The translations under genes and the position numbers were made by a program. From an uncultured Gemmatimonadales bacterium (lineage in GTDB: Bacteria > Gemmatimonadota > Gemmatimonadetes > Gemmatimonadales > GWC2-71-9): a stretch of DNA of 64,000 nt. Under the pieces are notes generated by a model that saw only the letters and a program-made list of their open reading frames with translations, made no database searches and had not been told where the DNA came from. Shown piece after piece: positions 1 through 64,000 of this stretch (within the stretch, counting starts at the first letter, position 1; the number at the start of each line of letters is the position of its first letter). The stretch lies in the NCBI GenBank assembly GCA_963810165.1, contig CAWEMG010000049.1, forward strand, positions 11,366 to 75,365. The letters are read 5' to 3'.

Positions 1-486
1 GTTCTCGTCGACCATGGCCTCGGCCAGCTTCGGATCCAGGCCGCGCTGCTCGGCCAGCGACCGGAACTCCGCCCGCATGGCCGATACCATCTTCTCAGAG
101 GCCTTGGTCCCCTCGCCGTCAACCGGCGTGGCGGCCCCGATGACGGCGCCGGGACGCATGTAGATCCCGTTGGTCGAGATGGCGATGAGCGCACCGGCGC
201 TGTATGCCCGCGGATTGACGAAGCCATATACCGGAATCCTGGCCCCCCGTACCGCATCGGCAATGCGCTCGGCTGCATCGACTCTGCCACCCGGCGTATC
301 GATGTCGAGGAATGCGGCGGCTGCCCCGGCTGATTCCGCTTCCCTGATGCTGCGGGCGACATAGGGTGCCAGCCCGTTCTCTACCACGCCCGAGACTGGG
401 ATGCGGTAGACGGTCGGAGCCTGGGCCCGGGGCACGAGCCAGGAGGTGGCAAGAAGAGCGAGCGTCAGTGACGTCAAACGGCGCAT
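1..486 (-). CDS. NfeD-like membrane-bound ClpP-class serine protease, N-terminal part (3' end runs off the window)
   Basis: Hand translation of the minus strand from ATG 486-484: MRRLTSLTLALLATSWLVPRAQAPTVYRIPVSGVVENGLAPYVARSIREAESAGAAAAFLDIDTPGGRVDAAERIADAVRGARIPVYGFVNPRAYSAGALIAISTNGIYMRPGAVIGAATPV... This shows a signal peptide plus the DTPGG / SAGALIA pattern typical of NfeD/S49-like proteases. Not in the ORF track because it has no stop in the window. Confidence 0.6.
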   Translation of the reverse strand, partial: MRRLTSLTLALLATSWLVPRAQAPTVYRIPVSGVVENGLAPYVARSIREAESAGAAAAFLDIDTPGGRVDAAERIADAVRGARIPVYGFVNPRAYSAGALIAISTNGIYMRPGAVIGAATPVDGEGTKASEKMVSAMRAEFRSLAEQRGLDPKLAEAMVDEN

Positions 487-563
487 CGCGGAATCCTGTG
501 GGGGGATGCCGCAATCTAGCCGGAGGCCTGTTTCGGGGCGAGGGGAAGGAGAGGGATGTGAGT

Positions 564-614
564 AAAAAACGGTGAACGGCAAACGGCGCGGCTGCACCCC
601 GTTTGCCGCTCACC
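564..614 (-). terminator. Intrinsic terminator after the sigma/anti-sigma/Spy-like operon
   Basis: On the minus strand the stem GGTGAGCGGCAAACGG / CCGTTTGCCGTTCACC (571-614) is followed by TTTTTT (564-569). It lies 21 nt downstream of the stop at 635. The stem is built from GGTGAACG/GCAAACG-type short repeats. Confidence 0.6.
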
Positions 615-634
615 GTTCATCGTTCACCGTAGAT

Positions 635-1195
635 TCAGATCTGGCCGGTCTCACGCGTCCGCTGGCGAACGTGGCTCCGGCCAGACTTCCCATCTTTGTG
701 CCAGTCCCGCATCTCGCCGCGGTGTCCGTGGACTTCCCGCACGCGATGTGCGAATCGCTCCCGCATCATATAGAGCTGGGCCCGCTGCACCGCGTTGAGA
801 TACTTGGACTGCTCCTTGATCTCGTCGCGAGAGAGCTGGGCCCGGGCTGACCTCAGCTCTATCATGGCGTCGGTGAGCTTGGCAACACTGTCCTGGTTGG
901 CCGCCACTCCGGGCTGCAGCTGATTTGCCAGCGCATTCCGCAGCCGCTCCTCCCGGCTTCGGAGATCGGCCCGCCTGACGCCGAACTGCCGGCTGGTGGC
1001 TCGGAGCTTGGCGGTCTGATCGTCGGTGAGCCTCAGCTTCTCCTGAGCTCGCGAAGCAAACCGCTCCTCGATGCGATGCCGGAGCGAGTCGGCTCGGGCG
1101 GAACTGGAGTCGGCACGCTGCGCGTACGCCAGGCTGAGCGGCGACAGCATCAGCACCAGAGACCATCTATATGCGGCTTGCATCAACCCTCCCAT
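635..1195 (-). CDS. Periplasmic Spy/CpxP-like (LTxxQ) stress protein
   Basis: Signal peptide MQAAYRWSLVLMLSPLSLAYAQ, an LTDDQ motif and a helical R/E/Q-rich body. Last gene of the ECF sigma operon. The alternative start ATG 1183-1181 overlaps the upstream stop (TGATG). Confidence 0.55.
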   Translation of the reverse strand: MGGLMQAAYRWSLVLMLSPLSLAYAQRADSSSARADSLRHRIEERFASRAQEKLRLTDDQTAKLRATSRQFGVRRADLRSREERLRNALANQLQPGVAANQDSVAKLTDAMIELRSARAQLSRDEIKEQSKYLNAVQRAQLYMMRERFAHRVREVHGHRGEMRDWHKDGKSGRSHVRQRTRETGQI

Positions 1196-1713
1196 GAGTT
1201 GAGGACACGTTCGAGTTCTTCCGAATTGAGGTCACCCAGTTCCAGGTCTTCACCGTTGGCGCTCCGGGCGGCGGCTTCATCCATGGTCTGAAGCACCGAA
1301 TCGAGCTCCGCCGGCTGCAGGCTCTCGAGCTCCGGCAGCGGGATCTCGAGCTGGCCTGCGACCAGCGACGCTTCGGGGATACCTGAGCTGCCGCGGCGTG
1401 GGCAGCTCTCCGGTCCAGACTGCGACCAGGACGGCCGCCGCGGCCGCCAGGCCCCCGAAGGTCCAAGTTCTGACTGCGGCGGCGCCTGGAGCTTCCTGTC
1501 ACGCTCCACTCGTCCCAGGACCGAGCCCGCGAGCGCGGCAGGCTCCAGCCGTTCGGCGGCGGCCGTTCCGAGGCGATTCGCCGCACAGACCAGCTTCCAT
1601 TCCAGCTGGCAGCCGCCGCATAGTGTCAGGTGTTGCACCTCCTGCTGCGTCCATTGGGCATGCCCCAGCGCCACAGCCGGCATCCGATCGGAGAGCCACC
1701 CACAGTCGCTCAT
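1183..1713 (-). CDS. Anti-sigma factor, zf-HC2 type
   Basis: N-terminal H-x3-C-x2-C (HLTLCGGC). The start overlaps the sigma-factor stop (ATGA at 1710-1713). Confidence 0.6.
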   Translation of the reverse strand: MSDCGWLSDRMPAVALGHAQWTQQEVQHLTLCGGCQLEWKLVCAANRLGTAAAERLEPAALAGSVLGRVERDRKLQAPPQSELGPSGAWRPRRPSWSQSGPESCPRRGSSGIPEASLVAGQLEIPLPELESLQPAELDSVLQTMDEAAARSANGEDLELGDLNSEELERVLNSWEG

Positions 1714-4225: not shown

Positions 4226-5960
4226 TCAGGCGACCGCGTAGAGCTCCGTCACGTCCCGTCCCGCCGGCCGGCTCATCAGGCGGAACTCGTCCAGCCGCAT
4301 CATGGGGTCATCCCGAAGCTCGATGTCCACCCCGGTCAGCTTGGTGAGGGTCTGAAGCAGCCGGGGCTCCTCCTCCAGCAGGTACAGCGCCACCTCAGGA
4401 TGCAGCCGGACGGTCAGCTGCCGTTCGCGCCGGTCGTGTCCCGCCCGCTTGAGAGCCCGCTCCAGCCGCCGGGCCACTACTTCAGGCGTGAATACCCGGC
4501 CTGAAGCGGCGCAGGTGGGGCAGTCGGTGGTCATGGAGTGCCACAGCGATGGCCGGACCCGCTGGCGGGTCATTTCCACCAGTCCCAGCTCGGACACGGC
4601 CAGCGCCTTGGTGCGGGCCCGATCGCGGCCCAGGTGGGTGCGCAGCTCCTGGAGCACCTTGTCGCGGTTGGACCTGGTCTCCATGTCGATGAAGTCGCAC
4701 ACGATGATGCCGCCGATGTCCCGGAGACGGATCTGCCGGGCGATCTCGCGGGCCGCTTCGATGTTGGTGCGGAGGATGGTCTTCTCCGGATCCTTCTTGC
4801 CGGTATAGCGGCCGGTGTTGACGTCGATACTGATCAGCGCCTCGGTCGGCTGGATGACGAGGGAGCCGCCGGTGGGCAGCTCGACCCGGGCCTTGAAGAG
4901 GTCGCGGATCTCGGATTCGATATCGAACTTGTCGAACAGCGGCGTGGCGTCGGTGTAGAGGTGCACCCGGCTCATCAGCTCGGGATCGATCTGCTGGAGG
5001 TACTGCTCGATCTCGTTGTACAGCTCCTTCATGTCGACGTGGAGCGCATCGACCTTGGCGCTGAACAGGTCCCGGATGATGCCTCGGGTCAGGCTGGTCT
5101 CGCGCTGGAGCAGTGCCGGAGCCCGCCGCACGAAGCTCTTCTTACGGTTGATCTTCTTCCACAAGGCGAGCAGAGACTCGATCTCGCGCCGGAAGTGATC
5201 TTCGGTGACCCCTTCCGCTACCGTCCTGACGATCACGCCACCCGAATTCTCCGGCAGCAGCTTGGTGACCATCTCCCGCAGCTTGGCGCGCTGCTCCCGG
5301 CTCTCGATCTTCCGGCTGACGCCGACCTTCGAGGCGTAGGGCATGTAGACCAGGAACCGGCCCGGCAGCGAGATCTGCGCCGTCACCCGGCAGCCCTTGG
5401 AACCTATCGGCTCCTTGGTCACCTGGACGGGAAGGCTCTGCCCCTTCTTCAGAATGTCCTGGATGTTGGGGAACGCACGGCGGGGAGAGATCTCGCGCTG
5501 GCGGGCCTCACCGGCTGGTTTCTCAGCGGCGCCATTCCCGCGGCGCCCCCGGCGCCGGTCCCGGCTCCGCCAACCACCCGCCTTGCGCTCGGGGGGCGGG
5601 TCAGTGACTCCGGGGGGCTCACTCGCCTCTGGCTGCTCGGTCGACCTCGTCCTCGGCAGCCTCCTCCTCTTCCGGCTCCTCGTCCTCATCCGGCTCGAGG
5701 AGATCGGAGGCGTGCAGGAAGGCGCTCTTCTCCTGACCAATGTCGACGAACGCGGCCTGGATGCCCGGAAGGACGGCTTCGACGCGGCCAAGGTAAATGT
5801 CACCCACGGTGCGGCGATGGTCGGGACGGTCCACCAGCAGCTCTACCAGCCTATCGTCTTCCAGGATGGCCACACGGGTTTCCCGCTGGCTCCCATTGAT
5901 CAGGATCTCGCGCTTCAAGTATGACCTCGTGGAGATCACCGGGACCGCCCGGTGATTCAC
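4226..5960 (-). pseudogene. rng: Ribonuclease G/E family endoribonuclease, one frame break near 5640
   Basis: N-terminal ORF 5619-5960 has the S1 domain start (REILINGSQRETRVAILEDDRLVELLVDR...GDIYLGRVEAVLPGIQAAFVDIG). ORF 4226-5803 continues with IQDILKKGQSLPVQVTKEPIGSKG...GGIIVCDFIDM...CPTC. The join lies in an acidic linker. A likely true start is TTG 5918 (MKREILIN). Confidence 0.85.
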
Positions 5961-6046
5961 TCATCCCAGAGAAAACGCGCTCCTCGGAGGCTGCCCACGA
6001 CCGTATGGAGGAGCATGCCGCGAAAAGCGCGTCGCTGCTGGCGCTA

Positions 6047-6075
6047 ATTATATGTAGGGGAGTGATTTAGAGCAA
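6047..6075 (-). promoter_or_regulatory. Sigma-70-like promoter for the rng-rplU-rpmA operon
   Basis: Minus strand: TTGCTC (6075-6070), a 17-nt spacer, then TATAAT (6052-6047). It sits about 90-130 nt upstream of the rng start candidates. Confidence 0.5.
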
Positions 6076-6082
6076 TGAGGGC

Positions 6083-6169
6083 GAGTCGCCAGTCGCCGGT
6101 TGCCGGTTGCTAGTTGCTCAGTCGGCGACGAAGGTTGGCCCTGACTGGCGACTGACGACTGGCGACTGC
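6083..6169. repeat. Heptamer-repeat inverted arms (AGTCGCC / GGTTGCC units)
   Basis: GAGTCGCCAGTCGCC-GGTTGCCGGTTGCTAGTTGC...CTGACTGGCGACTGACGACTGGCGACTGC. The left AGTCGCCAGTCG is the reverse complement of the right CGACTGGCGACT. The right arm abuts the acyl-CoA dehydrogenase stop codon. Confidence 0.6.
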
Positions 6170-7386
6170 TAATCCACCGTCTCCCCCAGAATGTGCCTGG
6201 CAATCACGATCCGCTGGATCTCGCTGGTCCCTTCCCCGATCTCGCAGACCTTGGCATCTCGCATCATGCGCTCCACCGGGTACTCGGTGGTGTAGCCGTA
6301 GCCGCCGAAGATCTGGACTGCCTTGGTGGTGGCCCGCATGGCCAGCTCCGAGCAGAACAGCTTGGCCATGGCCGCCTCCTTCTTGAAGGGGCGGCCGCTC
6401 TGCTTGAGCCAGGCAGCGTGGTACAGGAGATGGGTTCCGGCCTCGATCTCCAGGGCCATATCGGCGAGCTGGAAGCTGACGCCCTGGAAGCTCCCAATGG
6501 GGCGGCCGAACTGTTTTCTCACCCCGGCGTACTTCAGGGCTTCCTCGTAGGCTCCCTCCGCGATGCCGAGGGAGAGCGCGGCGATCCCGATGCGGCCCGC
6601 GTCGAGGGTCTTGAGGAAGTTGATGAAACCGTAGCCCGGCCGCCCCAGTACGTTCTCCTTCGGCACCACCGCATCTTCGAAGATCAGCTCCCGGGTGTCG
6701 CTGGCCCGCCACCCCATCTTGTCCTGCTTCTTCCCCGCCCTGACCCCCTTGGTCTTGGGCAGATCGGGTGCGTGGCCGATGCCCAGCCGGCGAGCCTGAT
6801 CCAGATCGACCGTGTCCTTGGTGACGATAAAGCTGGTGATTCCCTTGTTCCCTTTGCCGGCCTCGGTGCGCGCGGTGATCACGAATACTTCGCCCACGCC
6901 CGCATGAGTGATGAAGATCTTGGAGCCGTTCACCAGATAGTGATCGCCCTTATCCACCGCCGTGGTTGCGGTCCCGCCGGCATCGCTGCCGGCTCCCGGC
7001 TCCGTCAGGCCGAAGCCACCCAGAACGCGCCCCGACGCCAGCAGGGGCACGTATCTGCGCTTCTGCTCCTCGGTGCCGAACTCGACGATGGGAGATGTGC
7101 CCAGGTTGGTGTGGGCACTGATGGTCAGCGCATGACTGGCGTCGACCTTTGCCATCTCGTGGATGGTGATGTAGTACGACAGCTGATCCATGCCCGCACC
7201 GCCCAACTCCTCGCTCCAGGGAACTCCCAGGAGCCCCAGCTCGCCCATCGCCTTGATGTTGTCCCACGGGAAGGTCGAGGTACGATCGAGCTCCGGCGCC
7301 ACGGGGAGGATGTGGGTCTGCGAGAAGTCACGCACCATCTCGCGAACCTGGTGGTGGTGCTCGGTGAAGTACAACGAGTCGTCCAT
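6169..7386 (-). CDS. Acyl-CoA dehydrogenase
   Basis: 405 aa, intact. [78 protein letters not shown]. Confidence 0.92.
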
Positions 7387-7428
7387 CGTGTTGCGTGCTC
7401 CGGTCAGGTGGTGGAACCAGTCACCAAG

Positions 7429-9286
7429 CTAACCCGGAGGCATGAGGGGAGCCACCGCCTGCTCGGCCGTGCCTCCCTCATGCCGCACCAGCCGCAGCAG
7501 ATCATCGGCAAACTTCGCCAGGGCCCTCGGACCGACCCCGCGTATTCCGGCCAGATCCACTCTCGTCTCCGGCCGTCTGGCCGAAACGGCGCGGAGCACT
7601 GCGTCCGGTATGACCACGTAGGCGGGCACGCCCATCTCTACGGCCACCCCGGCACGCCACGCTTCCAGTCTCATGTACATCGGGATCAGGAGGCGGGTCT
7701 TGGGATTCCGGCTCAGCGGAGAGCGCACGAAGAACCACGGCGCCGAGACGGGACGCGAGCGCCGGGCCGACTCCCGGCACATCGGCCAGGGATGCCGCGT
7801 CTGGGGGTGGCTGGCGAGCCAGCCGAAGCAGCACCCGTGGCTCCAGCGGACAGCCTCCCCACACGGCGTCCCGGCCCGCGAGTGCGCGCCTGAGCCGGCC
7901 CAATCGAGCGGCGACTTCCTGATCGGCGGGTGCCGGAATCGGCTTGGTACCACAGCGATCACAGCCGGCGCAACGGGTGAGGCGCTCTCCGAAATACCCC
8001 ACCAGCCGAGCCCGCCGACATCTACCTTCCCGGGCGTATGCTTCCACGGCCTGGATGCGTGCCTCCGCCTGTGACCGGCGCTCCCGAATCGGCCGCCAGT
8101 CAACCGGACCTCGCTCGGGGTGCAGCTCCCGCCGCAGCCGCTCGGCGGATTCCAGCACGTTGCCGGGAACGCCGACCCGCCCATCTCGCTCGTGCCAGAT
8201 TTGCTCCAGCAGCCGCCGGGCCGGGAACGTGACATCCAGCTGGCGGCGGTGGAGGTCGGCGTCTGCGGACCTCCACAGCAGCACGCAGCGGGCGAACTCT
8301 CCGTCTCGTCCGGCTCGGCCGGCCTCCTGGTAGTAGGCCTCCGGGGTGGGCGGCGGACTCCAGTGGACCACCAGCCGGACCGACGGCTTGTCTATCCCCA
8401 TGCCGAAGGCGCAAGTGGCGACAATGACGTCAACCCGATCTCGCAGGAAATTGTCCAGAGTGGCTGCACGGGTAGTCTTGGAGAGACCGGCATGGTACGG
8501 CGCGGCCCGGTGGCCGGCTTTCACGAGTGCACGGGCTATGGCTTCCGTGCTGCCCCGGGTAGGAGCGTAGACGATGGACATGGCATCGTCTCCCTGCAGA
8601 AGACGGAGCAAAGTCTGCAGCCGCTCCTTCTCACTGGCGACACGTACCGCACCGAACCAGAGATTCCGCCGGTCGAACGACCCGAGATGCAATGCGTAGC
8701 CAGGCCGGAGCCGGAGCGCGCGCGCGATTTCCTCCCGCACGCCGGGCGTGGCGCTTCCGGTGAGCGCTACCGCCTGGGGCTGGCCCAGCCGATATCGAGC
8801 GCGCGACAGCCTGCGGTAGCTGGGACGGAAATCATGTCCCCATTCGGCAATGCAGTGCGCCTCGTCCACCACCAGCAGCCGAGGCCGAGTGCCTCGGGCC
8901 AGGAGCTCTTCGCTGAGGCGCTCGAGCCGCTCTGGTGACACGTACAGCAACCGTAGAGAACCGTCGGCAACACCTCGACGAACCTCCGCCTGCTCCGCCT
9001 TGCTCAAACTGCTGTTGAGACAGGCGGCAGGAAGTCCTCGGGCCCGTGCGGCTTCGACCTGGTCCTGCATCAGCGAGATCAGCGGTGAGACCACGATGCT
9101 GAGGCCCGGCAGCACCAGTGCGGGAATCTGGAAACAGATCGATTTCCCGCCCCCGGTTGGCAGCACTGCGAGCGTGTCACGACCATCGAAGATGGACTGG
9201 AGAATGGGGATCTGCGAGCGGCGGAAATCCGGGTATCCGAAGTGGTGCAGCAGGAGACGGCGTGCCTCGGCCATATGATCGGTCAC
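7429..9286 (-). pseudogene. recQ: ATP-dependent DNA helicase RecQ, one frame break near 7.71 kb
   Basis: ORF 7502-9286 has FRRSQIPILQSIF, LPTGGGKSICFQIPAL, DEAHCIAEWGHDFRPSY, a Zn-binding CAGCDRC and a first HhH/HRDC-like segment. A second HRDC (LEAWRAGVAVEMGVPAYVVIPDAVLRAVSARRP...GIRGVGPRALAKFADDLL) lies in ORF 7429-8235 in another frame. Confidence 0.88.
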
Positions 9287-9482
9287 ACCCGAAGATGCCC
9301 GGATTGCCGGGAAGTCAGGATTCAGAAAACTGCAGCGATGGGCCTCGAAGCGCGGAGCCTGCGGTGCTAATTCTCACAAGAAACGGTAGACAGAGAGGCC
9401 GGTGATCATCGGCCTCCATGCCTACCGCTCTTAGTCTTCGCCTTGCGTCCTGCTCAACTTCGTCGGTCGGTACCGCTTCCCG

Positions 9483-10055
9483 TCAGTCACCGCCCAGGCG
9501 TATTCCCAACGTGATCGGAATGAACTGTGCATCGGAACTGCCCTCTCCGAACACATTATGAAAGCGTCCTTCAACGAAGAAACCGATACCGCTGGTCTTG
9601 ATGTCGAAGCCGGCCCCACCATTGATGCCGAAATCCGTGCTGGTGTCGCCATCACCGGGCGCCACTACGTCGTCGCCACCCACCGATTTGAAGTTGTAAA
9701 TGCCACCTCCAGCAATTAGGTAGGGGCGAAATGTGCTTTCCTCTGAGGTCTTGAACTTGTACACGAGGTTGGCCGTCCCCTGAATGATCTGGCTCGTCAG
9801 ATCGCCGGGGATGGCGTCATCGAATGCGAGGCGCTGGTACATGCCGTCAATCTGAATACCCAGTGGAAAGGAGCCGGGAACGAACGATATCCCGACCAAG
9901 CCGTGAAAGCCGGTCTTGGCCGCGTCGGCATAGTCACTCAGCGGGACAGTGGCTCCACCGCCTAGAGAAAACTCCGCGCCCTGCGCTCGAACGGTAGGCG
10001 CACTAAGCAGCATTCCCAATGCGAGTGCCGCCGTACCCCTCAGAAGCCCCCTCAT
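9483..10055 (-). CDS. Outer-membrane beta-barrel protein (OmpA-like porin family)
   Basis: Signal peptide MRGLLRGTAALALGMLLSAPTVRAQ followed by alternating beta-strand pattern with G/Y/F-rich turns. 190 aa. Confidence 0.6.
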   Translation of the reverse strand: MRGLLRGTAALALGMLLSAPTVRAQGAEFSLGGGATVPLSDYADAAKTGFHGLVGISFVPGSFPLGIQIDGMYQRLAFDDAIPGDLTSQIIQGTANLVYKFKTSEESTFRPYLIAGGGIYNFKSVGGDDVVAPGDGDTSTDFGINGGAGFDIKTSGIGFFVEGRFHNVFGEGSSDAQFIPITLGIRLGGD

Positions 10056-10139
10056 AGATCCTCCATGTCAGCGAGGTGATGCCATCAGTGTTGTGGGGGG
10101 CAAAGTAGTAGGCCTAGGAAATGGGACCTGTGAGCGCCG

Positions 10140-10337
10140 TCACAATTCCTGGTCCGGATGAGAGTTCCCGTCCTCCCGCTTGCGAGTGATCAGACGGGCG
10201 GCGAGGGAGATAAGTAGCACGGCGATGGCCGCCCAGACAAGCCAACTGTCGTTCAGGGCGATGCTCGCGAACGCGAGCACGAAGCCCAGTGCCGCGAACG
10301 CGAGGCGCAGGCGATTCGTTGCCTGCACCCGATTCAT
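10140..10337 (-). CDS. Small membrane protein, hypothetical
   Basis: 65 aa with two hydrophobic helices (LRLAFAALGFVLAFASIAL, WLVWAAIAVLLISLAA). The start overlaps the enoyl-CoA hydratase stop by 4 nt. Confidence 0.35.
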   Translation of the reverse strand: MNRVQATNRLRLAFAALGFVLAFASIALNDSWLVWAAIAVLLISLAARLITRKREDGNSHPDQEL

Positions 10338-11580: not shown

Positions 11581-11581
11581 C

Positions 11582-15827: not shown

Positions 15828-15834
15828 GCGGCTC

Positions 15835-18575: not shown

Positions 18576-18580
18576 CCGGC

Positions 18581-18665: not shown

Positions 18666-18669
18666 GAAA

Positions 18670-27360: not shown

Positions 27361-27367
27361 CCCCGTC

Positions 27368-45036: not shown

Positions 45037-45059
45037 TGACCGAAACTAGGAGCGATCAC

Positions 45060-53048: not shown

Positions 53049-55213
53049 GTGAACTCTTTGGTGCAGGCTTCTTGTTCCCGGTTCCTCAGTGGTCCGTTGG
53101 CCGCACTCATCGTGGCCGCTTCTCCGCTAGAGGCCCAGGTACGTGTGGTCTCCCCCGACGGCCGCAACCAGGTCACTGTAGAGATTCGCGAAGGCCGGCT
53201 GAGCTACAGCCTTGTCCGCGACGGACGCCCGCTGATCCTGCCTTCCATGCTGGGCTTCGCGTTTCGGGGGGCACCGCCGCTGCGAGACCGGCTCCGCATC
53301 ACCGACACCACCCGGCAGGCGAAGGACGAGTGGTGGACCCAGCCCTGGGGCGAGGTGGCACGGGTCCGCGACCACTACAACGAGCTGGCGGTCACCGTCT
53401 ACGGAAACCGACCGCCCGGCCGCCCGACACTTTATCCTGCGGGTGCGGGCATTCGACGACGGCGTGGGCTTCCGGTACGAGCTTCCGCAGCAGCCGGCGC
53501 TCGGCGGGTTCGTGATCAGTGATGAGCTCACCGAATTTGCCCTGGCCGACAACTCGCGGGCCTGGTGGATTCCGTCCAACTATGCCCGGAAAGACCGGTC
53601 CGAAATGCTTTACTCATCGGGCCCGGTCAGCGTGCTCGACAGCGTGCAAACCCCGCTCACGATGCAGTCCCAGGACGGCCGCACCTTCATGGTGATCCAC
53701 GAAGCCAATCTCGTGGACTACGCCCGGATGTTTCTGCGGGGCGCGCGCAGCGAAAGCCGCGTCCTCACGGCCGCCCTGGCGCCGATGGCCGACGGCACCA
53801 AGGTGCGGGGCCGCACGCCATTCGTGACGCCCTGGCGCACGATTCAGCTGGCCGACCGCGCCACCGGGCTGTCGCCTTCCCTGCTCGGCTTGAAGCTCAA
53901 TCCCCCGAACGCGCTCGCCCGCACCGACTGGATCCATCCCATGAAGTACGTCGGCATCTGGTGGGGCATGCACATCGGCACCATGAGCTGGAGCTCGGGA
54001 CCGAAACACGGCGCCACCACCGAGAATACCAAGCGATACATCGACTTCGCGGCGGCCAATGAGCTCGGCGGCGTGCTGGTGGAGGGATGGAACACCGGCT
54101 GGGACGGAGACTGGATCGCGAACCGGGAGGCGTTTTCGTTCACCCAGTCCTATCCCGACTACGACCTCAAGGCCGTTGCTGCGTACGCCAAGCAAAAGGG
54201 CGTGCGGCTGATCGTCCACAACGAGACCTCGGGCGGGGTCGAGAACTACGAGCGCCAGCTGGACAGCGCCTTCACCCTGTACCGGTCGCTGGGGCTCGAT
54301 GCCATCAAGTCCGGCTACGTCACCGACCTGACCAGCGAGGGCCACTCGCACTACTCGCAGTACATGGTGCGCCACTATCGCAAGGTGGTCGAGGCGGCCG
54401 CCAAGTACGGCATCATGGTGAACGTCCACGAGCCGATGCACGACACCGGCGAGCGGCGGACCTACCCCAACATGATGAGCCGCGAGGGGTCCCGCGGTCA
54501 GGAGTACAACGCCTGGAGCGGCGACGGCGGCAACCCGCCGGAGCACGAGACCATCCTCTTCTTCACCCGGCTCCTGGCCGGGCCCATGGACTTCACGCCG
54601 GGGATCTTCGATCTGCTGCGGGTCCGCCGGCCGGAGGAGCCCCGGGTCCGCACCACCCTGGCCAAGCAGCTCGCGCTGTACGTGGTCCTCTACTCGCCGA
54701 TGCAGATGGCGGCCGATCTCCCGGAGAACTACGAGGGACAGCCGGCCTTCCAGTTCATCCGCGATGTCGCGGTGGATTGGGACACGACCCGGGTGCTCGA
54801 CGGCAGGATTGGAGACTATGTCGCGGTCGCGCGCCGTGAGCGCGGGGGGCCAGACCTGGTTCGTGGGAGCGATCACCGACGAGGAGGGGCGCACGCTTGA
54901 CCTTCCGCTCACCTTCCTCACCCCGGGCCAGCGCTACGTCGCCGAGATCTATGCGGATGGCCCCAAGGCGCATTGGCTGGACAATCCGCTGCCGGTCACC
55001 ATCAATCAAACCGCCGTGACCTCCGCGACCCGGCTGCGGGTCAGGCTGGCGCCCGGCGGCGGCCAGGCGATCCGGATCCGGCCGGCACGACGAACAGAGC
55101 GCTCGTTCCGCGCATTCCGTGTACTGAGTGCTGAAGGCGACTGCGCTCGCTCGCCCGGGCGATGGGGGTGCATACCCGCTACATCAACGGCCTGGGCAAG
55201 GCCGTCACCGTAG
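53049..55213 (+). pseudogene. GH97 alpha-glucosidase (SusB-like), 2-3 frame breaks, C-terminus unresolved
   Basis: VSPDGRNQVTVEIREGRLSYSLVRDGRPLILPSMLGF, RAFDDGVGFRYELP, WWIPSNY...EMLY, TPWRTIQLAD, YVGIWWGMH, VLVEGWNTGWDGDW, VHNETSG, YVTDL...HYSQYMVRHY, VNVHEP..DTGERRTYPN.MSREGSRGQEYNAW, FTRLLAGPMDFTPGIF. The in-sequence frame runs to 55213. TGA codons at 55125 and 55132 in other frames are alternative ends. Confidence 0.85.
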
Positions 55214-57072
55214 CTCCCGAGACGCTGGTGCGGGTCTGCGCAGCGCTTGGGAGCCTCGATCGAGCGGCCGGGCGATGCCACCGATGCACTCACCGAACAT
55301 CGCGAGCAGGCCCAGGCGCAGCTCGTGCCGCCTGTGCTCGTTGCCTGGGATGGGTGCCCTCGCCCTTACGATCTCCACCGATCGCCCCATCCATGCCCAG
55401 CTGCAGCTCGAGGACGGATCGGTCGTCCCGCTGGCCCGTTCGGAAGCCGGGTTGGGGACCGCACAGCCGCTTCCCTCCGGGTACCACCGTCTCACCGTCG
55501 AGGCTGGCGAGCCGAAGCGAGACGAGCACGGTCATCGCCGCGCCGCTTCAGGTCTGGCGACGGCCGGGGGAGCATCGGAGCTGGGGCGTCGGGACCCACC
55601 TGGCCGCGCTCCGCTCGGCACGCAGCCGATCGCTTGGAGATCTTCGGGATCTCGAGCTGCTCTGTCGCTGGGTGGGTGAGCGCGGCGGCGACCTGGTCAC
55701 GGTCCTTCCCCTGGTCCCGACCTTCAACTCCCGGCCGCCGGAGCCCAGTCCGTACTCGCCGGTGAGCCGGCTCTTCTGGTCCGAGCTGATCCTCGATCTC
55801 GGTCAGAACCACCGCGCCGTGCCACCACCCCAGGGCCTGGACGTCACCCGCGCCGACGCCGAACTGCGACAAGCTCTGGCCGGGCATCCGCTGCCACCGC
55901 TCTCGGAGCTGGACGAGGAGCTGGTCCGCTACGCCCGCTTTCGCGGCGCGCAGGTCCGGCTCGGCAGGAACTGGCGGGACTGGCCGGCATCCGCCCGCGC
56001 CGGCACGCTCTCTCCTGAGGACATGGATCCGGAAGAGGAGCGCTTTCACCTCGTGGCCCAGACGCTGGCGCGCCGCCAGCTTCGCGACCTGCGGCAACGC
56101 CTCGACGCCGATGGATTTCGTCTGGGGCTCGACCTCGCGGTGGGAGTCCATCCGGACGGCTACGACCCCTGGTCGCGCCAGGCTCTGTTCGCCGAAGGGA
56201 TGTCGGTGGGCGCCCCTCCCGACCAGGGCTTCCCCAGCGGGCAGGACTGGGGGTTCAGCCCGGTGCTTCCCGGGGCATCCCGCCTGGAGGGGCATCGCTA
56301 TCTAGCGGCTTCCATAGCTCACCAGGCGGGGCTCGCGGGCGTGCTCCGGGTGGACCACATTATGGCCTGGACCCGGCTGTACTGGATCCCTCACGGGCTC
56401 GGCCTGCACGACGGGACCTACGTCTCCTATCCGGCCGAGGAGCTGTTCGCGGTGCTGAGCCTGGAGTCGAACCGCCACCGATGCGAGGTGGTGGGCGAGA
56501 ATCTGGGCACCGTGCCGCGCGAGATCTTCGAGGCGCTACCGCGCCACCGGATCTGGGGCATGTACCTCGCCATGTTTCAGGCGTCCGCCGGCCCGGTGGT
56601 TGCGCCGCCGACCGCGGCGGACATGGCCCTGGTCGGCAGCCACGATACGCCGACGTTCGCGGGTTGGCTCAAGGGCAACGACATCGCGGACCGGGTGCGC
56701 CATGGACTGTTGCCGGAGGCAAAAATGCCGGCGGTCATGGAGGAACGGCAGCGCGCCGTCGGATGGTTGGCGGCCCAGCTGGAGAGTACCGCCGAGAACC
56801 CTCGCGCCTTGCTGGCTGCGCTGCTCGAGTGGCTCGGCCGCTCGGACAGCCCGCTCGTGGTTCCCTGGCTCGAGGACCTCTGGCTCGAAGAGGAGTCCGT
56901 CAACCTGCCTGGCACCCCGTCATTCGTTCGCCCCAACTGGCAGCGGCCGATGCGGCGGCTGCTGGACGAGATCTTCAGTGACCCGGACGTGGACGAGCTG
57001 GTACGCCGTCTCGACCGCGCTCGGAGGTCACAAGTCACTCGCGGAGAGATCCTTCGACTGCGCTCAGGATGA
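55162..57072 (+). pseudogene. malQ: 4-alpha-glucanotransferase (amylomaltase, GH77), about 3 frame breaks in the N-terminal 350 nt
   Basis: The long ORF has RSWGVGTHLAALRS..S.GDLRDL, PLVPT...SPYSPVS, GLDLAVGVHPDGYDPW, GQDWGFSPV, LRVDHIMA, VGENLGTVP, GSHDTPTFAGW, NLPGT. The N-terminal domain (ALALTISTDRPIHAQLQLEDGSVVPLA...YHRLTVEAGE) is in ORF 55128-55679. The true start may be GTG 55128. Confidence 0.88.
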
Positions 57073-57103: not shown

Positions 57104-58691
57104 ATGGCAACACACGCCGTAACTGCTCCTGCTCTGCCAGTCCGCACGAAGCCGCGACTCACGTTCTGGGAAATCTGGAACATGAGCTTCGGCTTCCTCG
57201 GCATTCAGATCGGCTTCGCCCTCCAGAATGCCAACGTGAGCCGGATCTTCGAGACCCTGGGTGCCAAGGTGGAGAACATCCCCATCCTCTGGATCGCAGC
57301 ACCGGTGACCGGTCTCCTGGTCCAGCCGATCGTCGGCTACATGAGCGATCGGACCTGGAACCGCCTGGGCCGACGGCGGCCTTACTTCCTGGTGGGGGCG
57401 ATCCTGGCGTCGCTCGCGCTGCTGGCGATGCCGAACTCGCCGGCGCTCTGGGTCGCGGCGGGTATGCTCTGGATCATGGATGCGTCGATCAACATCTCCA
57501 TGGAACCGTTTCGCGCCTTCGTGGGCGACAATCTGCCCTCGGAGCAGCGGACCACCGGTTTCGCGATGCAGAGCTTCCTCATCGGCACCGGCGCGGTGGC
57601 GGCCTCGATTCTTCCCTGGCTCCTGACCACGCAGTTCGGGGTGAGCAACGAGGCGCCGCCGCACATGATCCCGGACTCGGTGCGGCTCTCGTTCTACTTC
57701 GGCGCCGCGGTGTTCTTTCTGGCGGTGCTGTGGACGGTGCTGCGCTCGAAGGAGTATGCGCCCGAGGAGATGGCCAGCTTCGCGGAGAACCAGGCGCGGG
57801 AGGGCGTAAGACAGGAGAGTCGAACGGCCGCGGAGTTCAGCGTGAACGGCGGGCGCCAGATCCGCGTGGGGGCGATCCTATTGGTTGTCGGCGTGGTGCT
57901 GAGCGCCTGGCTGGCCCGGGCCGAGATCTACCAGGTGATGATCCTGTCTGCCGGGGTCGCGGCCGTTGGGCGTGCTGCTGATCCTCAGTGGTCTGCTGCA
58001 GCGGGGCGGCCGCTACGACAACGGCTTCGTCACCATCCTGAACGACTTCCAGGACATGCCCCGTACCATGAAGCAGCTGGCCTGGGTCCAGTTCTTCTCC
58101 TGGTTCGCGCTCTTCGCCATGTGGATCTACACCACGCCGGCGGTGACCAGCCATCTCTACGGCACCACCGACGCCAGCTCGGCGCTCTACAACGAGGGCG
58201 CCAACTGGGTCGGGGTGGGTTCGGCGCGTACAACGGCGTCGCGGCCGTGGTCGCCTTCGGAATCCCGATCCTGGCGCGGCGGACCAACCGCAGGATCGCG
58301 CACGCGATCTGTCTGGTCTGCGGCGCCCTCGGGCTGCTATCGATTCTGGTGCTCAACGATCCGCGTCTCCTGCTGGGCTCGATGGTGGGGGTCGGGATCG
58401 CCTGGGCCAGCATCCTCGCCATGCCGTACGCGATCCTGACCGGCTCGCTGCCGCCGTCGAAAATGGGCTACTACATGGGGGTGTTCAATTTCTTCATCGT
58501 GATCCCCCAGATCGTCGCGGCGGCGCTTCTGGGCTTTCTGGTGGGGCGCTTTTTCGGTGGCGAGGCGATCTACGCGCTCGCCATCGGCGGCGGCTCGCTG
58601 CTCCTGGCCGCGGTGCTCACCCTGCGAGTAGAGGACAGGGACGAGCCGGAGACCGGGACGTGGCATCCAGGGTTCCCTCCACCTCGGTCTG
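57104..58691 (+). pseudogene. MFS sugar transporter (SLC45/GPH-like, maltose/sucrose type), 2-3 frame breaks, C-terminus unresolved
   Basis: LTFWEIWNMSFGFLGIQIGFALQNANVSRIFETLGA...QPIVGYMSDRTW.RLGRRRPYFLVG...MEPFRAFVGDNLP. The second half (MKQLAWVQFFSWFALFAMW..., GIAWASILAMPYAIL) is in other frames. The given frame reads through element C to 58915. Confidence 0.8.
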
Positions 58692-58869: not shown

Positions 58870-60519
58870 TTCGCCACGCTGGTCGGCGCGTGTGGCCCCA
58901 GACCCGAGACGATGAAGTCCGTCCCGCCGGTGCGACTGCCTCAGCCACCGACCCGGCCGTGTTCTGGAACAGCGCCACCATCTACTTCCTGCTCACCGAT
59001 CGCTTTTTCAACGGAGACTCGACCAACGACCGCGCCGCGGGCCGCGCGAAGGACGGAGCGGTGCTGCGGAACTTCGAGGGTGGAGACCTCGCCGGCGTGC
59101 TCCAGAAGATCGAGGAGGGATACTTCGACAGCCTGGGCGTGACCGCCATCTGGATGACTCCGTTCGTGGAGCAGATCCACGCAGGGGTCGACGAGGGAAC
59201 CGGGAAGACCTACGGATACCACGGCTACTGGACCCGCGACTGGACCGCCGTGGATCCAGCGCTGGGAACCACAGGACGACCTTCGCGCGGTGGTGGACGC
59301 TGCCCATCGGCATGGCATTCGGGTCCTCATGGACGCAGTGATCAACCACACCGGCCCAGCGACCCCACAGGATCCCGCGTGGCCCGGCGACTGGGTGCGC
59401 ACGGCTCCCAACTGCTCCTACAAGAGCTACGTCACCACGGTGGACTGCACCCTGGTGGCCACGCTTCCCGACATCCGCACCGATCGCGACGCGCCGGTGG
59501 CACTCCCTCCAGCCCTGCTCGAGAAGTGGCAGCAGGAGGGGCGACGGGAGCGCGAAGTGGCGGAGCTCGACGCGTTCTTCGAGCGCACCGGGTACCCGCG
59601 CGCACCGCGCTACTATGTCATCAAATGGCTGACCGATTGGGTGCGCGAGCTCGGCTTCGACGGCTATCGGCTGGACACCGCCAAGCACTTCGAGCCGGCG
59701 GTCAGCGCCGAGCTGAGGCGTGAAGCCGAAGAGGCGCTGAGCGGACTGGAGGCGGACGCATTCGGATCAGGTTCGGGACAGCCTGCCTGTTCTACATGGT
59801 GGGCGAGGTCTACGGTTGGGAGCCGGGCCAGGGCGCGGGAGTACAGCTTCGGCGACCGGACCGTGGACTTCTTCTCCCACGGTTACGACGCCCTCATCAA
59901 CTTTGGCTTCAAGAGCGATACCGCGTCGCTGGATGGTCTCTTCAGCCGGTACTCCGCGATGCTCGACGGCGGGATCACTCCGCGGGGTCAGCATGCTCAA
60001 CTACATCAGCTCTCACGACGACGGATCGCCGTACGATCCCGACCGGAAGGATCCCATCGGCGCCGGGACGCGACTGCTGCTCGCACCAGGGGGCGCTCAG
60101 ATCTACTACGGCGACGAGCTGGCGCGGCCGCTGAGGGTCTCAGGGGCCGAGGGCGATGCGAACCTGCGGTCGTTCATGAACTGGGGAGATCTGGAGCGCC
60201 GGGCCGAGGTTCTACAGCATTGGCGCAAGCTGGGGCGATTCCGTCGGGCCCATCCTGCCGTGGGGGCCGGCGTACATCGCACGCTTCAGGCGAAGCCGTA
60301 CATCTTCAGCCGCACGCTCGAGTCGGGGGGCAAGGTCCGATCGCGTGCTGGTGGCGATGGATCAGGGAAAGGGGGCCAAGACGATCCCGGTGTTTGGCGT
60401 GTTCCCCGATGGCACCAAACTGGTGGACGCATACTCGGGCGTGTAGCCACTGTGTAAGAGACGGGAAGGTTTCGCTTACGACCGGATCCGGCCTGGTACT
60501 GCTCGCTGAGCCACGGTAA
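58822..60519 (+). pseudogene. GH13 alpha-amylase, lipoprotein, about 5 frame breaks
   Basis: GTG 58822 gives (M)RLPCLPCFRGALLFLFATLVGAC (lipobox), encoded by the right arm of element C. FLLTDRFFNGD, GH13 regions I LMDAVINHTG, II GYRLDTAKH, III MVGEVYG, IV NYISSHDD. The end is ...KVSLTTGSGLVLLAEPR*. Confidence 0.85.
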
Positions 60520-61092: not shown

Positions 61093-62968
61093 CTACTCTC
61101 TGATCCAGATCCTAGCCGCCCGAGCCGGCAGCTGGGCCTTGAGCTTCCCGTCGACAACGTTCGCTGTCCCGCCCGCCGGAAAGGCGAGCCGATAACTTCC
61201 CTCCGCCGCGAGGGAGATCTCCTGTGGCGCATCCGAGACGTTGAACGCCACAATGGCGCGCTGGTCGCCCAGAACCCGGTCGTACGCCAGCAGGCCCCGG
61301 CGCATCGTCGGTAAGTAGCCAGTTCAAGGTTCCGTCGACGAACAGTCGCAGATTCTGCTTCCTCAGCGTGATCAGGTCGCGGTATACCCGGAAGAGCGCG
61401 GTGTCGGGCGCCACCGGGTCCCGCCGGCGAGGCCGGCCGAACGGATGTACCACCTCGTCCTCGTAGCGCTGATCCGACCACACCATCGGCTTCCGCTCGT
61501 CCGGGTCGTCGGCGCCCCACATGCCTACCTCGTCGCCGTTCCAGATGTGCGGCGCACCGATGTAGGTGAACTGCTGTGCCAGGATCATCTCCTGCGTCTG
61601 GCGGGTGCGCTGCGTCGGGCCGGTCGATCCGGTAGGCGGGGTCCTCGCGGGGCGAGTTGTGGTACTTGTAGCGGCCGGGATTGTAGATCGACGTGCCGAA
61701 GCGCGGAGTGTCGTGGCTCGCCGGTCAGGTTCATCATCGCCTTGACGTGCGTGGGGCCGATCCCGGTGGCCAGTGAGTCCAGGCTGTGCCGCGTACGCCG
61801 TGGGAGTGAGCGGCGCCGGCGCCTTCGCGAAGAAGCTGCGGGTCGGCATGTACCAGCGGTAGTTCATCACCGCGTCGAACACGTCGCCCTTGAGCCACGG
61901 GATCGGGTCGTAGATCGTGTCGGGCCATTTCTCCCACCATACCTCGCCCACCAGGTACGCCTCGGGGTTGATGCTCCGGACGAAGCGCCGGTAGTCGCGC
62001 CAGAAGCCCAGCGGAACCATCTCGGCCACGTCCAACCGGAAGCCGTCGACTCCGTCAGACGGGATCGCCGTCGCCATTGGGGTCCAGCCAGCGGCGGGTC
62101 ACGTGGAACACCTGGTCTCGGACGCCGGGGACGAGGTTGCCCTCGATCGCGCCGTGGGTCTTCCCCGGCGGCCGGCCCACCTTCTTCCATTCCGGCAGCC
62201 ATGGCACACCGACCCATCCGCGATACCGGAACTCGTTCGTGTCCGCGGTGGCAGGGTCATCGAAGCGCTCGATCGCGTACCAGTCGGCGAAGCGCGACGC
62301 GCGCTGCTTGGCGAGCACATCCTTCCAGGCCCAGAAAGAGATCCCGGTGTGGTTCCAGGAGTAGTCCATGATGATGCGCATGCCCGCGGCGATGCGCCTC
62401 GCGCACCAGGCGCGAGGAACAGGCTGTCGGCGGCGGTCCACTTCCAGGTGGCCGGGTCCACCGGGTTCTTCGGCCGCCATGAGGGCTTCGTCGCCGCGCG
62501 GGTCGGGGCCGAAGTTGCGGTCGATGTGGTGGTAGTTCCGGGCGTCGTACTTGTGCAGCGAGGGTGCGTCGTTCACCGGGTTGAGATACAGCGCCGTGAC
62601 GCCGAGATCCTGGAGATAGTCGAGCCGGTCGATGACGCCCTGGAGATCGCCGCCGTAGCGGCGGGACTGGACCGTGGCGTAGAAGTCCTTCCCGGTCGCT
62701 TTGGCCCAGGGCTCCTGCCGGTACCAGTCCTGCGACCAGGGCGTCGGCCGCCAGTCGCGGGGTGGCGGCTGATCCGTCACCCCTTCGATGTCGTGGGGGG
62801 TCGGATCGTTGGACGGGTCGCCGTTGCGAAAGCGTTCGACGAAGATCTGGTACCAGACCACGTCGCCGGCCCAGGCGGGCACGCTCCAGGTTGCCGCCGG
62901 GCGCCTCCTGGGGCGCGCCTCCTGGCGCAGGCGGCGCCGAGGAGCAGGAGAATCAGTAGCCTGGGCAA
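61093..62968 (-). pseudogene. GH13 glycosidase (cyclomaltodextrinase/neopullulanase-like), about 7 frame breaks
   Basis: Signal MPRLLILLLLGAACA. VVWYQIFVERFRNGDPSND, RRYGGDLQGVIDRLDYLQDLGVTALYLNPV, GH13 regions I IMDYSWNHTG, II GFRLDVAEM, III LVGEVW. IGAPHIWNGDEVGMWG. The end is ...KLKAQLPARAARIWIRE*. Confidence 0.85.
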
Positions 62969-62997
62969 TCAGCTCCCCGGCGCGATGCCGCCTTGCC

Positions 62998-63513
62998 TTA
63001 TCGCCTCCCTGCCGTCTCTCCTTCGAATGCGCGCTCCAGCGCCTCGATGTCGATCTTCTTCATCTTCAGCATCGCCTCCATGGCGCGGTCCGACTTCTCC
63101 CGGTCCGGATCGCTCATCATCTCGACCAGTGCTGTCGGCACCACCTGCCATGACAGGCCGTACTTGTCCTTGAGCCAGCCGCACTGCTGTGCCGCCGGAT
63201 CCCCACCCTGCGGTCAGCCGGTTCCAGTAGTGATCCACCTCCTCCTGGTCCCGGCACATGATCTGGAACGACACCGCCTCGTTGAACTTGAAGTGCGGGC
63301 CGCCATTGAGCGCGGTGAACGGTTGTCCGTTGAGCTCGAACTCGACGGTCATCACCGATCCCGCCGGCCTGCCATGGACTTCCGTCCGGCATCGCTGTAG
63401 CGAGTGATGGTGACGATCTTGGAGTTCTTGAAGATGCCGGTGTAGTACCGGGCTGCCTCTTCGGCCTGGGTATCGAACCACAGGCAGGGGGTAATTGGTT
63501 GGGTGGTCGCCAT
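62998..63513 (-). pseudogene. VOC-family / PhnB-like (3-demethylubiquinone-9 methyltransferase-domain) protein, 2 frame breaks
   Basis: GGAGGC lies before ATG 63513. MATTQPITPCLWFDTQAEEAARYYTGIFKNSKIV / [52 protein letters not shown] / [61 protein letters not shown]. Confidence 0.7.
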
Positions 63514-63719
63514 GGTAGCCTCCTATGGTTGTCGGTCAGGTAGGTGCTCGGGACGGGGCTCGCCTCCAGTCTGGAGGGTGCCCGATGCACGCTGGTAACG
63601 ACGCTCCAGCGCAGTCTGTCCCCACAGCCGCGACGACGCAAGTCTGGCCGGCCTCCTCGACTGCTGCTCCAAACCGATGCATCTTGTACTCCGACCTCAC
63701 TGATCGGCAGCTCCGACCT

Positions 63720-63854
63720 ATGACTGATTCCGAGAAGATGCTCCTGATGTTGATCTCCGTCGTAGCCGCGCTGGGGCTGGCTGGACTGTATTTGCTGCTG
63801 AAGGTGCTCTGGCGCATCGTCGCCGAGCTGGAAAAGAGAAACCGCTCCCTATGA
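63720..63854 (+). CDS. Small single-pass membrane protein, hypothetical
   Basis: MTDSEKMLLMLISVVAALGLAGLYLLLKVLWRIVAELEKRNRSL. The stop overlaps the next ATG (ATGA). Confidence 0.3.
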   Translation: MTDSEKMLLMLISVVAALGLAGLYLLLKVLWRIVAELEKRNRSL

Positions 63855-64000
63855 CATATGATCCGCCGGTACCCTGGTCTCCCTCCGGACCCAACGAGCA
63901 GCCCTCTACCCTGCCGAAGGACAGCCAGGGTCAGGCGATCAACGAAGATCGCCGGGAGCGGAAGGCTCGCGAGGCCGAGTTCGAAGAAAAGCATGGGCGC
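63851..64000 (+). CDS. Hypothetical protein, 5' part (runs off the window)
   Basis: MTYDPPVPWSPSGPNEQPSTLPKDSQGQAINEDRRERKAREAEFEEKHGR..., translationally coupled to the preceding small ORF. No family recognised. Confidence 0.25.
   Translation, partial: MTYDPPVPWSPSGPNEQPSTLPKDSQGQAINEDRRERKAREAEFEEKHGR

Follow-up and report, generated by a model that had tools for sequence, protein, structure and literature searches.

The window analysed here, a 64-kb stretch of DNA from an uncultured Gemmatimonadales bacterium, contains many genes whose reading frames are interrupted directly beside genes that are intact. The question that it raises is whether these genes are decaying in the organism or were broken in the deposited consensus. 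A first-pass annotation reported a large and patchy load of frame breaks and left the choice between homopolymer-linked sequencing error and relaxed selection on accessory genes undecided.

Distribution of the frame breaks

Frame breaks were mapped in two independent ways, by a Viterbi model of codon usage and by our own frameshift-aware protein-DNA alignment. Each gene was aligned to three protein references, which were orthologous ORFs without interruptions taken from Gemmatimonadales MAGs and JGI soil contigs. Our dynamic-programming aligner was substituted for plain chaining of blastx/tblastn hits, which was dropped because high G+C yields long off-frame ORFs and read-through HSPs. The codon-usage model alone recovers only 48 of the 78 reference-supported junctions and mislabels gene borders, and the counts in unreferenced genes are therefore lower bounds. 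Both methods confirm that the load is real, with roughly 120 breaks in the 64-kb window and a density of ~2.5 per kb of assessed coding sequence. The earlier counts proved mostly to be lower bounds. A six-hairpin glycosidase and the glycan-utilisation locus at 40-63 kb are hit hardest:

40174..43266, + strand: susC-type TonB-dependent receptor (Pfam Plug, TonB_dep_Rec_b-barrel, CarboxypepD_reg); 21 breaks (18 of +1, one of +2, two of -1)
43150..44895, + strand: susD-family lipoprotein (Pfam SusD_RagB, SusD-like_3); 13-14 breaks
45012..46408, + strand: GH13 alpha-amylase-family gene; 8 breaks, all +1
46545..49007, + strand: GH2 glycosidase (Pfam Glyco_hydro_2 domains); 12-13 breaks (9-10 of +1, 3 of -1)
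49814..52519, + strand: large secreted protein, conserved beside polysaccharide-utilisation genes in relatives, no family match in a Pfam search; 7 breaks by alignment
53076..55090, + strand: GH97 glycosidase (Pfam Glyco_hydro_97); 2 breaks towards the ends (53400, 54844), the intervening 1.44 kb clean
55020..57030, + strand: GH77 4-alpha-glucanotransferase (Pfam Glyco_hydro_77); 3-4 breaks, all before 55510, the next 1.5 kb clean
57104..58636, + strand: membrane transporter; 2 breaks by alignment (~57975, ~58219)
58946..60443, + strand: second GH13 gene (Pfam Alpha-amylase); at least 5 breaks by codon model
61104..63483, - strand: small 3-dmu-9_3-mt-fold gene and third GH13 gene (Pfam); at least 8 breaks by codon model
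23807..26168, - strand: six-hairpin glycosidase; 17 break events, all insertions (19-21 extra bases)

The susC gene was aligned to three intact orthologues of 1005-1022 aa over the full length of each (e.g. residues 1-1022 of 1022), and the 21 breaks found agree with the approximately 21 that had been read from the sequence. The susD, GH13 and GH2 genes are broken as annotated, but the numbers given (8-10, 5-7 for each GH13 and about 8) were too low for susD, for the GH13 gene at 45 kb and for GH2. The at least 8 given for the six-hairpin gene holds as a lower bound.

Outside of the glycan locus, the breaks and the clean stretches around the methylmalonyl-CoA mutase genes and further downstream are as follows:

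5640..15690, - strand: 10-kb clean block (acyl-CoA dehydrogenase, recQ-like gene, outer-membrane protein, enoyl-CoA hydratase, AtuA, most of the S8 peptidase); no supported break
12958..16028, - strand: S8 peptidase; 1 break (+2) at ~15700
15838..17945, - strand: carboxyltransferase (Pfam Carboxyl_trans) and B12-binding mutase subunit; clean by alignment
17908..18734, - strand: HAD-family hydrolase; 3 breaks by alignment
18673..19998, - strand: eRF1-like (baeRF) gene; 3 breaks, all +1 (18784, 18944, 19521)
19919..21754, - strand: methylmalonyl-CoA mutase large subunit (Pfam); clean by alignment
21610..22713, - strand: meaB GTPase (Pfam MeaB); 4-5 breaks
26283..29884, + strand: six consecutive ORFs (DUF1801, RibD_C, EamA, FMN_red, DUF3291 and others; Pfam); no frame change, codon model only
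~31872: ABC ATPase; 1 break
35626..37007, + strand: DinB_2, cupin and DinB-like genes (Pfam); 4-5 breaks by codon model

Here the earlier reading was largely borne out. The single break of the S8 peptidase, at least 4 breaks in meaB, at least 3 in the eRF1-like gene and 5 in the three genes at 35.5-37.0 kb were all recovered at or close to these numbers; in the last region alignment places a +1 at 36836. The mutase large subunit, carboxyltransferase, AtuA and acyl-CoA dehydrogenase genes are unbroken by reference alignment, and the AlkZ-like gene, the arginase-fold gene and the ORFs at 26.3-29.9 kb are unbroken by the codon model only. Broken and intact genes are indeed direct neighbours: meaB adjoins the intact mutase and the ABC ATPase adjoins its permease.

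The breaks are clustered. When 86 breaks are placed in 70 bins of 500 nt the dispersion is 1.99 (p = 2e-6), 34 bins are free of breaks where 20.5 are expected, and the probability of zero breaks across 5634-15701 by chance is 1e-11. Error-rich blocks of 0.3 to ~12 kb, with ~3-13 breaks per kb, alternate with essentially error-free blocks of 1.3-10 kb; the density reaches 7 per kb over the susC-GH2 block and 13 per kb in the short meaB patch. The error-rich blocks lie at 17.9-19.6, 21.8-22.1, 23.7-26.2, 35.6-37.0, 40.4-52.1, 54.8-55.5 and 58-63.5 kb. The load had been described as patchy on the scale of genes. The patchiness stands, but the patches are regional and not gene-wise. In meaB the breaks are confined to 21817-22128 and the P-loop half (22131-22686) is clean, and the patch at 54844-55506 runs from the 3' end of GH97 into the 5' part of GH77. 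Patches start and stop within genes and cross gene borders, so that the lesions do not respect gene units. It was considered whether the clean stretches are simply the conserved ones, and this was ruled out, as the poorly conserved S8 body is only 65-73% identical to relatives yet clean and the GH13 gene at 45.3-45.9 kb is 90% identical yet broken. Neither conservation nor core or accessory status forecasts where the clean stretches lie.

Extra bases in the window and in a related contig

The direction of the indels is strongly biased. Among the 85 single-step events 76 are net +1 and 9 are net -1 (binomial p = 2e-14), in addition to 10 events of +2, and no window-specific coding indel is longer than 2 bases. 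Half of the 58 isolated +1 events (29) cannot copy a neighbouring base, and only 11 fit a run of three or more. For the extra bases that could be placed exactly, 13 of 43 equal a neighbour, as compared with 45% for a random base of the window sequence. Homopolymer runs, which the first-pass annotation had seen in or beside some junctions, are thus the exception. One such case, a C/G run at about 15.71 kb, was correctly identified: the S8 break sits in a 6-base G/C run at 15694-15701 (six G on the + strand). Homopolymer-type error as known from 454, Ion Torrent and classic Nanopore data finds no support in these counts. The suggestion of an artefact stands, but not in its homopolymer-linked 454, Ion or long-read form, as nearly all of the single-step events are insertions.

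Comparison of the orthologous locus in sister genomes had been proposed as a check, and at the sites that could be compared it speaks for an artefact. Short-read contigs of relatives that are 90-95% identical, from several independent studies, lack the extra bases exactly at the mapped junctions, and every orthologous ORF that was fetched is a single uninterrupted ORF. Relatives omit one base at 41154, 41215 and 42435 in susC, at 43728, 43738 and 43755 in susD, at 17980 in the HAD-family hydrolase and at 18785, 18944 and 19522 in the eRF1-like gene, where the three protein references agree on the breaks to the base. In meaB, four runs from three different studies omit one base at 22128-22130, and X12 inserts a C at 21820. 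The stretch of the GH13 gene at 45 kb is matched as a single uninterrupted segment by 80 of 80 metagenome relatives. In the second GH13 gene one base is omitted at 59271, 59743, 59789, 59835 and 59968, and the phase of the third-position differences from relatives jumps by +1 exactly at the inserted base 59271. In 61104..63483 one base is omitted at 61721, 62884, 62923, 62968 and 62993; over the block at 58.9-63.5 kb as a whole, relatives left out one base in 11 cases and put one in in 1.

Additionally, a syntenic contig of a relative (L161), ~92-95% identical and from a separate ENA assembly, was compared with the window. Its orthologue of the eRF1-like gene carries PF18854 (baeRF_family10), and the window has 4 extra bases relative to it in the 35626..37007 region. 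The carboxyltransferase gene, intact in the window, has 9 insertion-type (+1) breaks in L161, and the mutase (5), EamA (5) and AlkZ (4) genes, all intact in the window, are likewise broken there, mostly by insertions. The six-hairpin gene is broken in the window and intact in L161; in the nucleotide alignment the window has 21 single extra bases, whereas L161 has none. Short-read runs gave no useful coverage of the six-hairpin region, and its relatives, which carry PF17389 and PF22422, were obtained by protein search instead. The frame-corrected product has 94% identity to one intact relative (P0001) across 781 of 782 aa, and the alignment contains neither stops nor codon indels. These results demonstrate that the extra bases are specific to the window sequence and that errors of this type also occur, in other genes, in a related contig of a separate assembly. 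The error spectrum is the same across unrelated genes and in the other genes of L161, and it is unlike that of natural mutation. We are confident that it is the deposited consensus that is in error at the frame breaks, overwhelmingly through spurious single-base insertions.

Selection on the broken genes and other explanations

There is some chance, though a minor one, that the bulk of the breaks is artefactual and that a few are real polymorphisms or recent inactivations. Candidates include the GH2 stop codon, the S8 break at ~15700 and some of the -1 events. The S8 run is a natural slippage site, the in-frame TAG of GH2 (47728-47730) differs from the TAT of the relatives by one T-to-G change, and the -1 events are a minority class that may differ in origin. 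The GH2 TAG and the S8 break could be genuine. However, nothing separates these few events from the error background. All are located within error-rich blocks or at their margins, and some substitutions and deletions are also to be expected in a consensus with ~0.7% indel error.

Genuine pseudogenisation, in which frameshifts accumulated under relaxed selection on the starch/glycan locus and other accessory genes, is very unlikely. The heaviest load does fall on the glycan locus and on the six-hairpin gene, which has a lower G+C (0.61) and is absent from the contigs of one relative. The GH2 TAG bears out the earlier report of at least one in-frame nonsense codon, and susC has a somewhat elevated branch-specific dN (0.094 vs ~0.055). 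These points are outweighed by the marks of continuing purifying selection that the underlying genes bear. After frame correction the products are full length (all 1022 residues in susC), and one stop is found in 5590 codons carrying 91 breaks, where decay would give 8-27 if 3-10 substitutions are assumed per indel. An estimate of dN/dS for broken versus intact genes had been proposed as a check. In the broken genes the values between the window and relatives (0.10-0.29) are equal to those between relatives, in which the genes are intact. Among the best-supported differences from close relatives, 25 of 40 in the polysaccharide-utilisation locus are third-position and synonymous, and 32 of 40 in the mutase region are synonymous, in the corrected frame.

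The indels themselves also argue against decay. Natural bacterial indels are said to be deletion-biased and to arise mostly by slippage (a finding attributed to Mira, Ochman and Moran, 2001), whereas those of the window are non-templated single bases with an insertion bias of 76:9 and none exceeds 2 bases. Breaks occur as well in functionally coupled housekeeping genes (meaB, the ABC ATPase, RNase E/G), the patches begin and end inside genes, and L161 is broken instead in the mutase and the carboxyltransferase. Like the reductive or relaxed-selection decay of Mycobacterium leprae, Rickettsia and Sodalis, the window has disrupted genes beside intact ones, with accessory catabolic loci affected worst. 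That decay brings deletion bias, broad indel sizes, nonsense codons and a dN/dS that approaches 1, and apart from the one TAG none of these is seen here.

It is highly improbable that the extra bases are real in the DNA of the population, either as the product of a strongly insertion-biased, non-slippage mutational process or as bases tolerated by an unknown form of decoding. Such a process could stem from a defect of repair or an aberrant polymerase confined to certain chromosomal segments, and it would have to be caught before any substitutions had followed. That the genes are functional as written, with the +1 sites read by programmed +1 frameshifting, quadruplet decoding or transcriptional slippage, is barely conceivable: in its favour, almost every break is +1 and the corrected proteins show no damage, but a search of the 43 exactly placed sites found no quadruplet codon, slippery sequence or shared motif (the commonest 4-mer occurs in 4 of 43), all four bases are inserted at all codon positions, relatives at 92-95% identity are without them, the sites differ between the window and L161, and the peak density has no known precedent.

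Origin of the errors and consequences

The consensus errors would be explained by a long-read-only or incompletely polished metagenome assembly. The name of the L161 contig is Flye-style, and the genome collection's nearest relatives include many Nanopore MAGs from a catalogue of the Flye plus one-round-Medaka type; such Nanopore-only catalogues exist (e.g. PMC12313526). Among public sequencing runs, including those selected with NANOPORE and PACBIO filters, the best hold at most 21% of the 31-mers of the window and represent relatives only, and an exact-protein look-up with three intact window proteins returned no record.

Watson and Warr are said to have described gene-fragmenting indel errors in long-read assemblies in 2019. 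As in such (meta)genome assemblies, many one-base indels split otherwise intact genes in the window, the orthologues in short-read assemblies are uninterrupted, and a contig with a Flye-style name shows the same damage; the problem is worse in low-coverage MAGs. The profile is not the textbook residual error of a Nanopore or HiFi consensus, which counts against an artefact. Residual errors of that kind are mainly homopolymer-linked, especially deletions (PMC12007338, the Kastor paper), whereas the window has ~90% insertions, mostly outside of homopolymers and strongly blocky.

The blockiness may reflect local consensus quality, through low coverage, mixed strains or failed polishing windows. 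One plausible cause, already raised in the first-pass annotation, would be that errors are worse where strains differ. In the Trypanosoma brucei allele-specific assembly study, apparent frameshifts are reported to result from collapsed alleles (PMC8445201): a mosaic consensus of similar molecules makes frame breaks that are gone once the haplotypes are separated. If strains that live together diverge in certain segments only, a comparable collapse would account for the blocks.

The breaks are almost all spurious extra bases, and the 'pseudogenes' of this contig should therefore not be accepted as they stand. In every 64 kb, dozens of genes would be turned into 'pseudogenes' or fragments. Gene counts and coding density are distorted as a result, as are inferences on pangenome and metabolism and any protein database that draws on the record, and the damage propagates if the genome serves as a species representative. 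The insertion-dominated, non-homopolymer, blocky signature, which is common to the related ENA assembly, is worth flagging to assembly curators because homopolymer-aware correction would miss such errors. Any use should be preceded by frameshift-aware annotation or by reference-guided frame repair of the predicted proteins. Most likely, the uncultured Gemmatimonadales soil bacterium carries all of these genes intact. They are ordinary starch/glycan-utilisation genes and a methylmalonyl-CoA mutase operon, almost certainly whole in the organism.

Mapping of the frame breaks

The window covers 64 kb at a G+C content of 66%, and all of the close relatives retrieved are Gemmatimonadales MAGs or soil/rhizosphere metagenome contigs. 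Pfam supports the gene names susC-type receptor, SusD, GH13, GH2, GH97, GH77, methylmalonyl-CoA mutase, carboxyltransferase, AtuA, acyl-CoA dehydrogenase, MeaB, AlkZ-like, arginase-fold, DinB, cupin and EamA. With the window's own long ORFs as its training set, a codon-usage Viterbi model found numerous frame switches on the same strand. As references we used syntenic loci around the carboxyltransferase (L001-L080) and around the 45-kb GH13 gene (L081-L160), together with homologues of the six-hairpin glycosidase; the genes are single unbroken ORFs in all of them. At this G+C content ordinary blastx chaining gave unreliable results, and therefore a custom protein-to-DNA dynamic-programming aligner was written, which permits +1, +2, -1 and -2 steps and was run with three references per gene. 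The references concur on the break positions to within a few bases.

Frame breaks per gene, by reference alignment
susC: 21
susD: 13-14
GH13 (45 kb): 8
GH2: 12-13, plus TAG at 47728-47730
unnamed protein (49.8-52.5 kb): 7
GH97: 2
GH77: 3-4
transporter: 2
meaB: 4-5
baeRF/eRF1-like: 3
HAD: 3
S8 peptidase: 1
RNase E/G: 1
six-hairpin glycosidase: 17

By this alignment the acyl-CoA dehydrogenase, recQ-like, enoyl-CoA hydratase, AtuA, carboxyltransferase, B12-binding subunit and mutase large subunit genes have no supported break. The list of broken genes in the first-pass annotation is thus borne out and, if anything, conservative. The codon model finds just 62% of the reference-aligned junctions, and its counts for the genes that have no references (the GH13 genes at 58.9-63.5 kb, the genes at 35.6-39.7 kb and the ABC ATPase) are therefore minima.

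Several of these genes merit a description of their own. The order meaB, mutase large subunit, baeRF, HAD hydrolase, B12-binding subunit, carboxyltransferase is kept in the window (17466-22713, minus strand), in L001 and L003, and in the related contig L161; baeRF (PF18854) is a bacterial eRF1-like gene that is conserved within the methylmalonyl-CoA mutase operon across Gemmatimonadales. The six-hairpin glycosidase region (23807-26168) has a G+C of ~0.61 vs 0.66, the region is missing from the relative X12, whose 11.4-kb contig spans the adjoining mutase operon, and the gene is probably accessory or acquired. On many soil contigs the conserved ~900-aa protein at 49814-52519 is encoded next to genes for susC/D and GHs; a Pfam search with it gave no family at E <= 0.001, and it may represent an undescribed glycan-active enzyme family.

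Nature of the surplus bases

The well-supported events comprise 76 of +1 (one surplus base in the window), 9 of -1 and 10 of +2 (p = 2e-14), and the +2 events can mostly be split into a pair of neighbouring +1 events. Insertions make up 17/17 events in the six-hairpin gene. For half of the isolated +1 events (29/58) no equally good placement makes the extra base a copy of its neighbour, and only 11/58 fit a run of at least 3. Independent contigs or the 95.5%-identical L161 gene allowed 43 extra bases to be placed exactly: 13/43 equal a neighbour, compared with 45% for a random base in the window, and no 3- or 4-mer is common to more than 6 of the 43. A homopolymer signature characterises 454, Ion, and typical Nanopore and HiFi consensus (PMC12007338). 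Error of that kind, which had been proposed from junctions near short runs, is rejected, as the extra bases are non-templated and lie mostly outside runs. Replication slippage is also rejected, its product pattern being unlike that of the extra bases.

Short-read-derived contigs of 90-95%-identical relatives, from several unrelated studies, omit exactly the mapped bases. These are 41154, 41215, 42435, 43728 and 43755 in the glycan locus; 17980, 18785, 18944, 19522 and 22128-22130 in the mutase region; and 59271, 59743, 59789, 59835, 59968, 61721 and 62884-62993 in the GH13 genes. At 21820, the one -1 site, the relatives carry an additional C, and the mutase gene in the 11.4-kb relative contig has zero 1-base indels vs the window. 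With orthologues unbroken and the mapped extra bases absent from the relatives' loci, the suggestion of an artefact held, and we consider it very likely that the frame breaks are consensus errors.

Differences of another kind were also seen. At ~19887, in the area where the mutase gene ends and the baeRF gene starts, X12 carries 18 additional nt (TTCCCGCCCTTCCCGACT), a natural-looking multi-base indel that contrasts with the 1-base events in genes. Between the two convergent GH13 genes, the segment at 60565-60993 is an insertion polymorphism, because the contig of a relative, X1, has 98 other letters in place of the 427 nt. Comparable skips of 80-150 nt occur in X1 and X2 in the spacer at 46284-46555.

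Selection on the frame-corrected genes

Relaxed selection on accessory genes had been the other explanation offered. After frame correction, pairwise dN/dS between window genes and relatives is 0.10-0.29, the same as among intact relatives: 0.29 and 0.26 vs 0.22 for susC, 0.27 vs 0.26 for susD, and 0.24 and 0.19 vs 0.18 for GH13. In the glycan locus, of the 40 single-base differences to close relatives that have the best support, 25 are third-position and 25 synonymous, and 32/40 are synonymous in the mutase region, including the broken baeRF gene. The differences in the 59-kb GH13 gene show a 3-base rhythm whose phase steps +1 precisely where base 59271 is inserted. Once corrected, the six-hairpin protein shares 94% identity with its L161-encoded homologue P0001 over 781/782 residues, with zero codon-level indels. 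The corrected frames contain 1 stop in 5590 codons bearing 91 breaks, where neutral decay (3-10 substitutions per indel) would give 8-27. Relaxed selection is not supported by these results. The only nonsense codon found in the corrected genes is the in-frame TAG at 47728-47730, which is TAT (Tyr) in three relatives; this GH2 codon may be a genuine event, as may the S8 break, which sits in a run of six G/C bases.

Regional clustering and a second damaged assembly

The clustering of the breaks is real (dispersion 1.99 across 70 bins, each 500 nt wide, p = 2e-6; 34 bins without a break vs 20.5 expected), and given an average of 2.5 breaks per kb the break-free 10 kb at 5634-15701 has a probability of 1e-11. 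The patchiness noted in the first-pass annotation therefore stands, but its unit is the region and not the gene. The meaB breaks are confined to 310 nt (21817-22128) and leave the P-loop half clean, a patch at 54844-55506 spans the GH97 end and the GH77 start with ~1.5 kb clean on either side, and the sole S8 peptidase break sits right at the gene's 5' end. Breaks inside the 40.4-48.9 kb block appear to be spaced in a Poisson-like manner, at ~7 per kb. Conservation did not predict cleanliness, as the S8 body is clean despite its poor conservation and the GH13 core is broken despite its high conservation. The blocky pattern could stem from local depth, from the collapsing of strains or from windows in which polishing failed.

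L161 (ENA ERZ25039576 contig_185354, 53.5 kb, from an ENA metagenome assembly) is syntenic with the window at 15-42 kb, and for much of that stretch the identity is 92-95%. Its first 22349 nt are full of +1 frame breaks, the same error signature in another public assembly. The six-hairpin gene is intact in L161, whereas the carboxyltransferase (9 breaks, insertions only), mutase (5), EamA (5) and AlkZ-like (4) genes are broken there and intact in the window; the breaks in its baeRF (7) and meaB genes are at positions that differ from those in the window. Two related assemblies thus each carry breaks, predominantly +1, in different genes, some of them essential, as a technical process predicts. 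Lineage-specific decay, in which the breaks would follow from relaxed selection, is very hard to reconcile with this distribution and is not supported.

A Nanopore-only catalogue assembled with Flye and one round of Medaka is the source of many of the nearest relatives; its authors checked for coverage-related sequencing errors and reported high microdiversity in soils (PMC12313526). The L161 contig name is Flye-style, and we infer that the window derives from a similar long-read assembly. Of the earlier interpretation the artefact is retained, without its homopolymer form and without relaxed selection. The frame breaks are no biological novelty, and the window record needs frameshift-aware handling.
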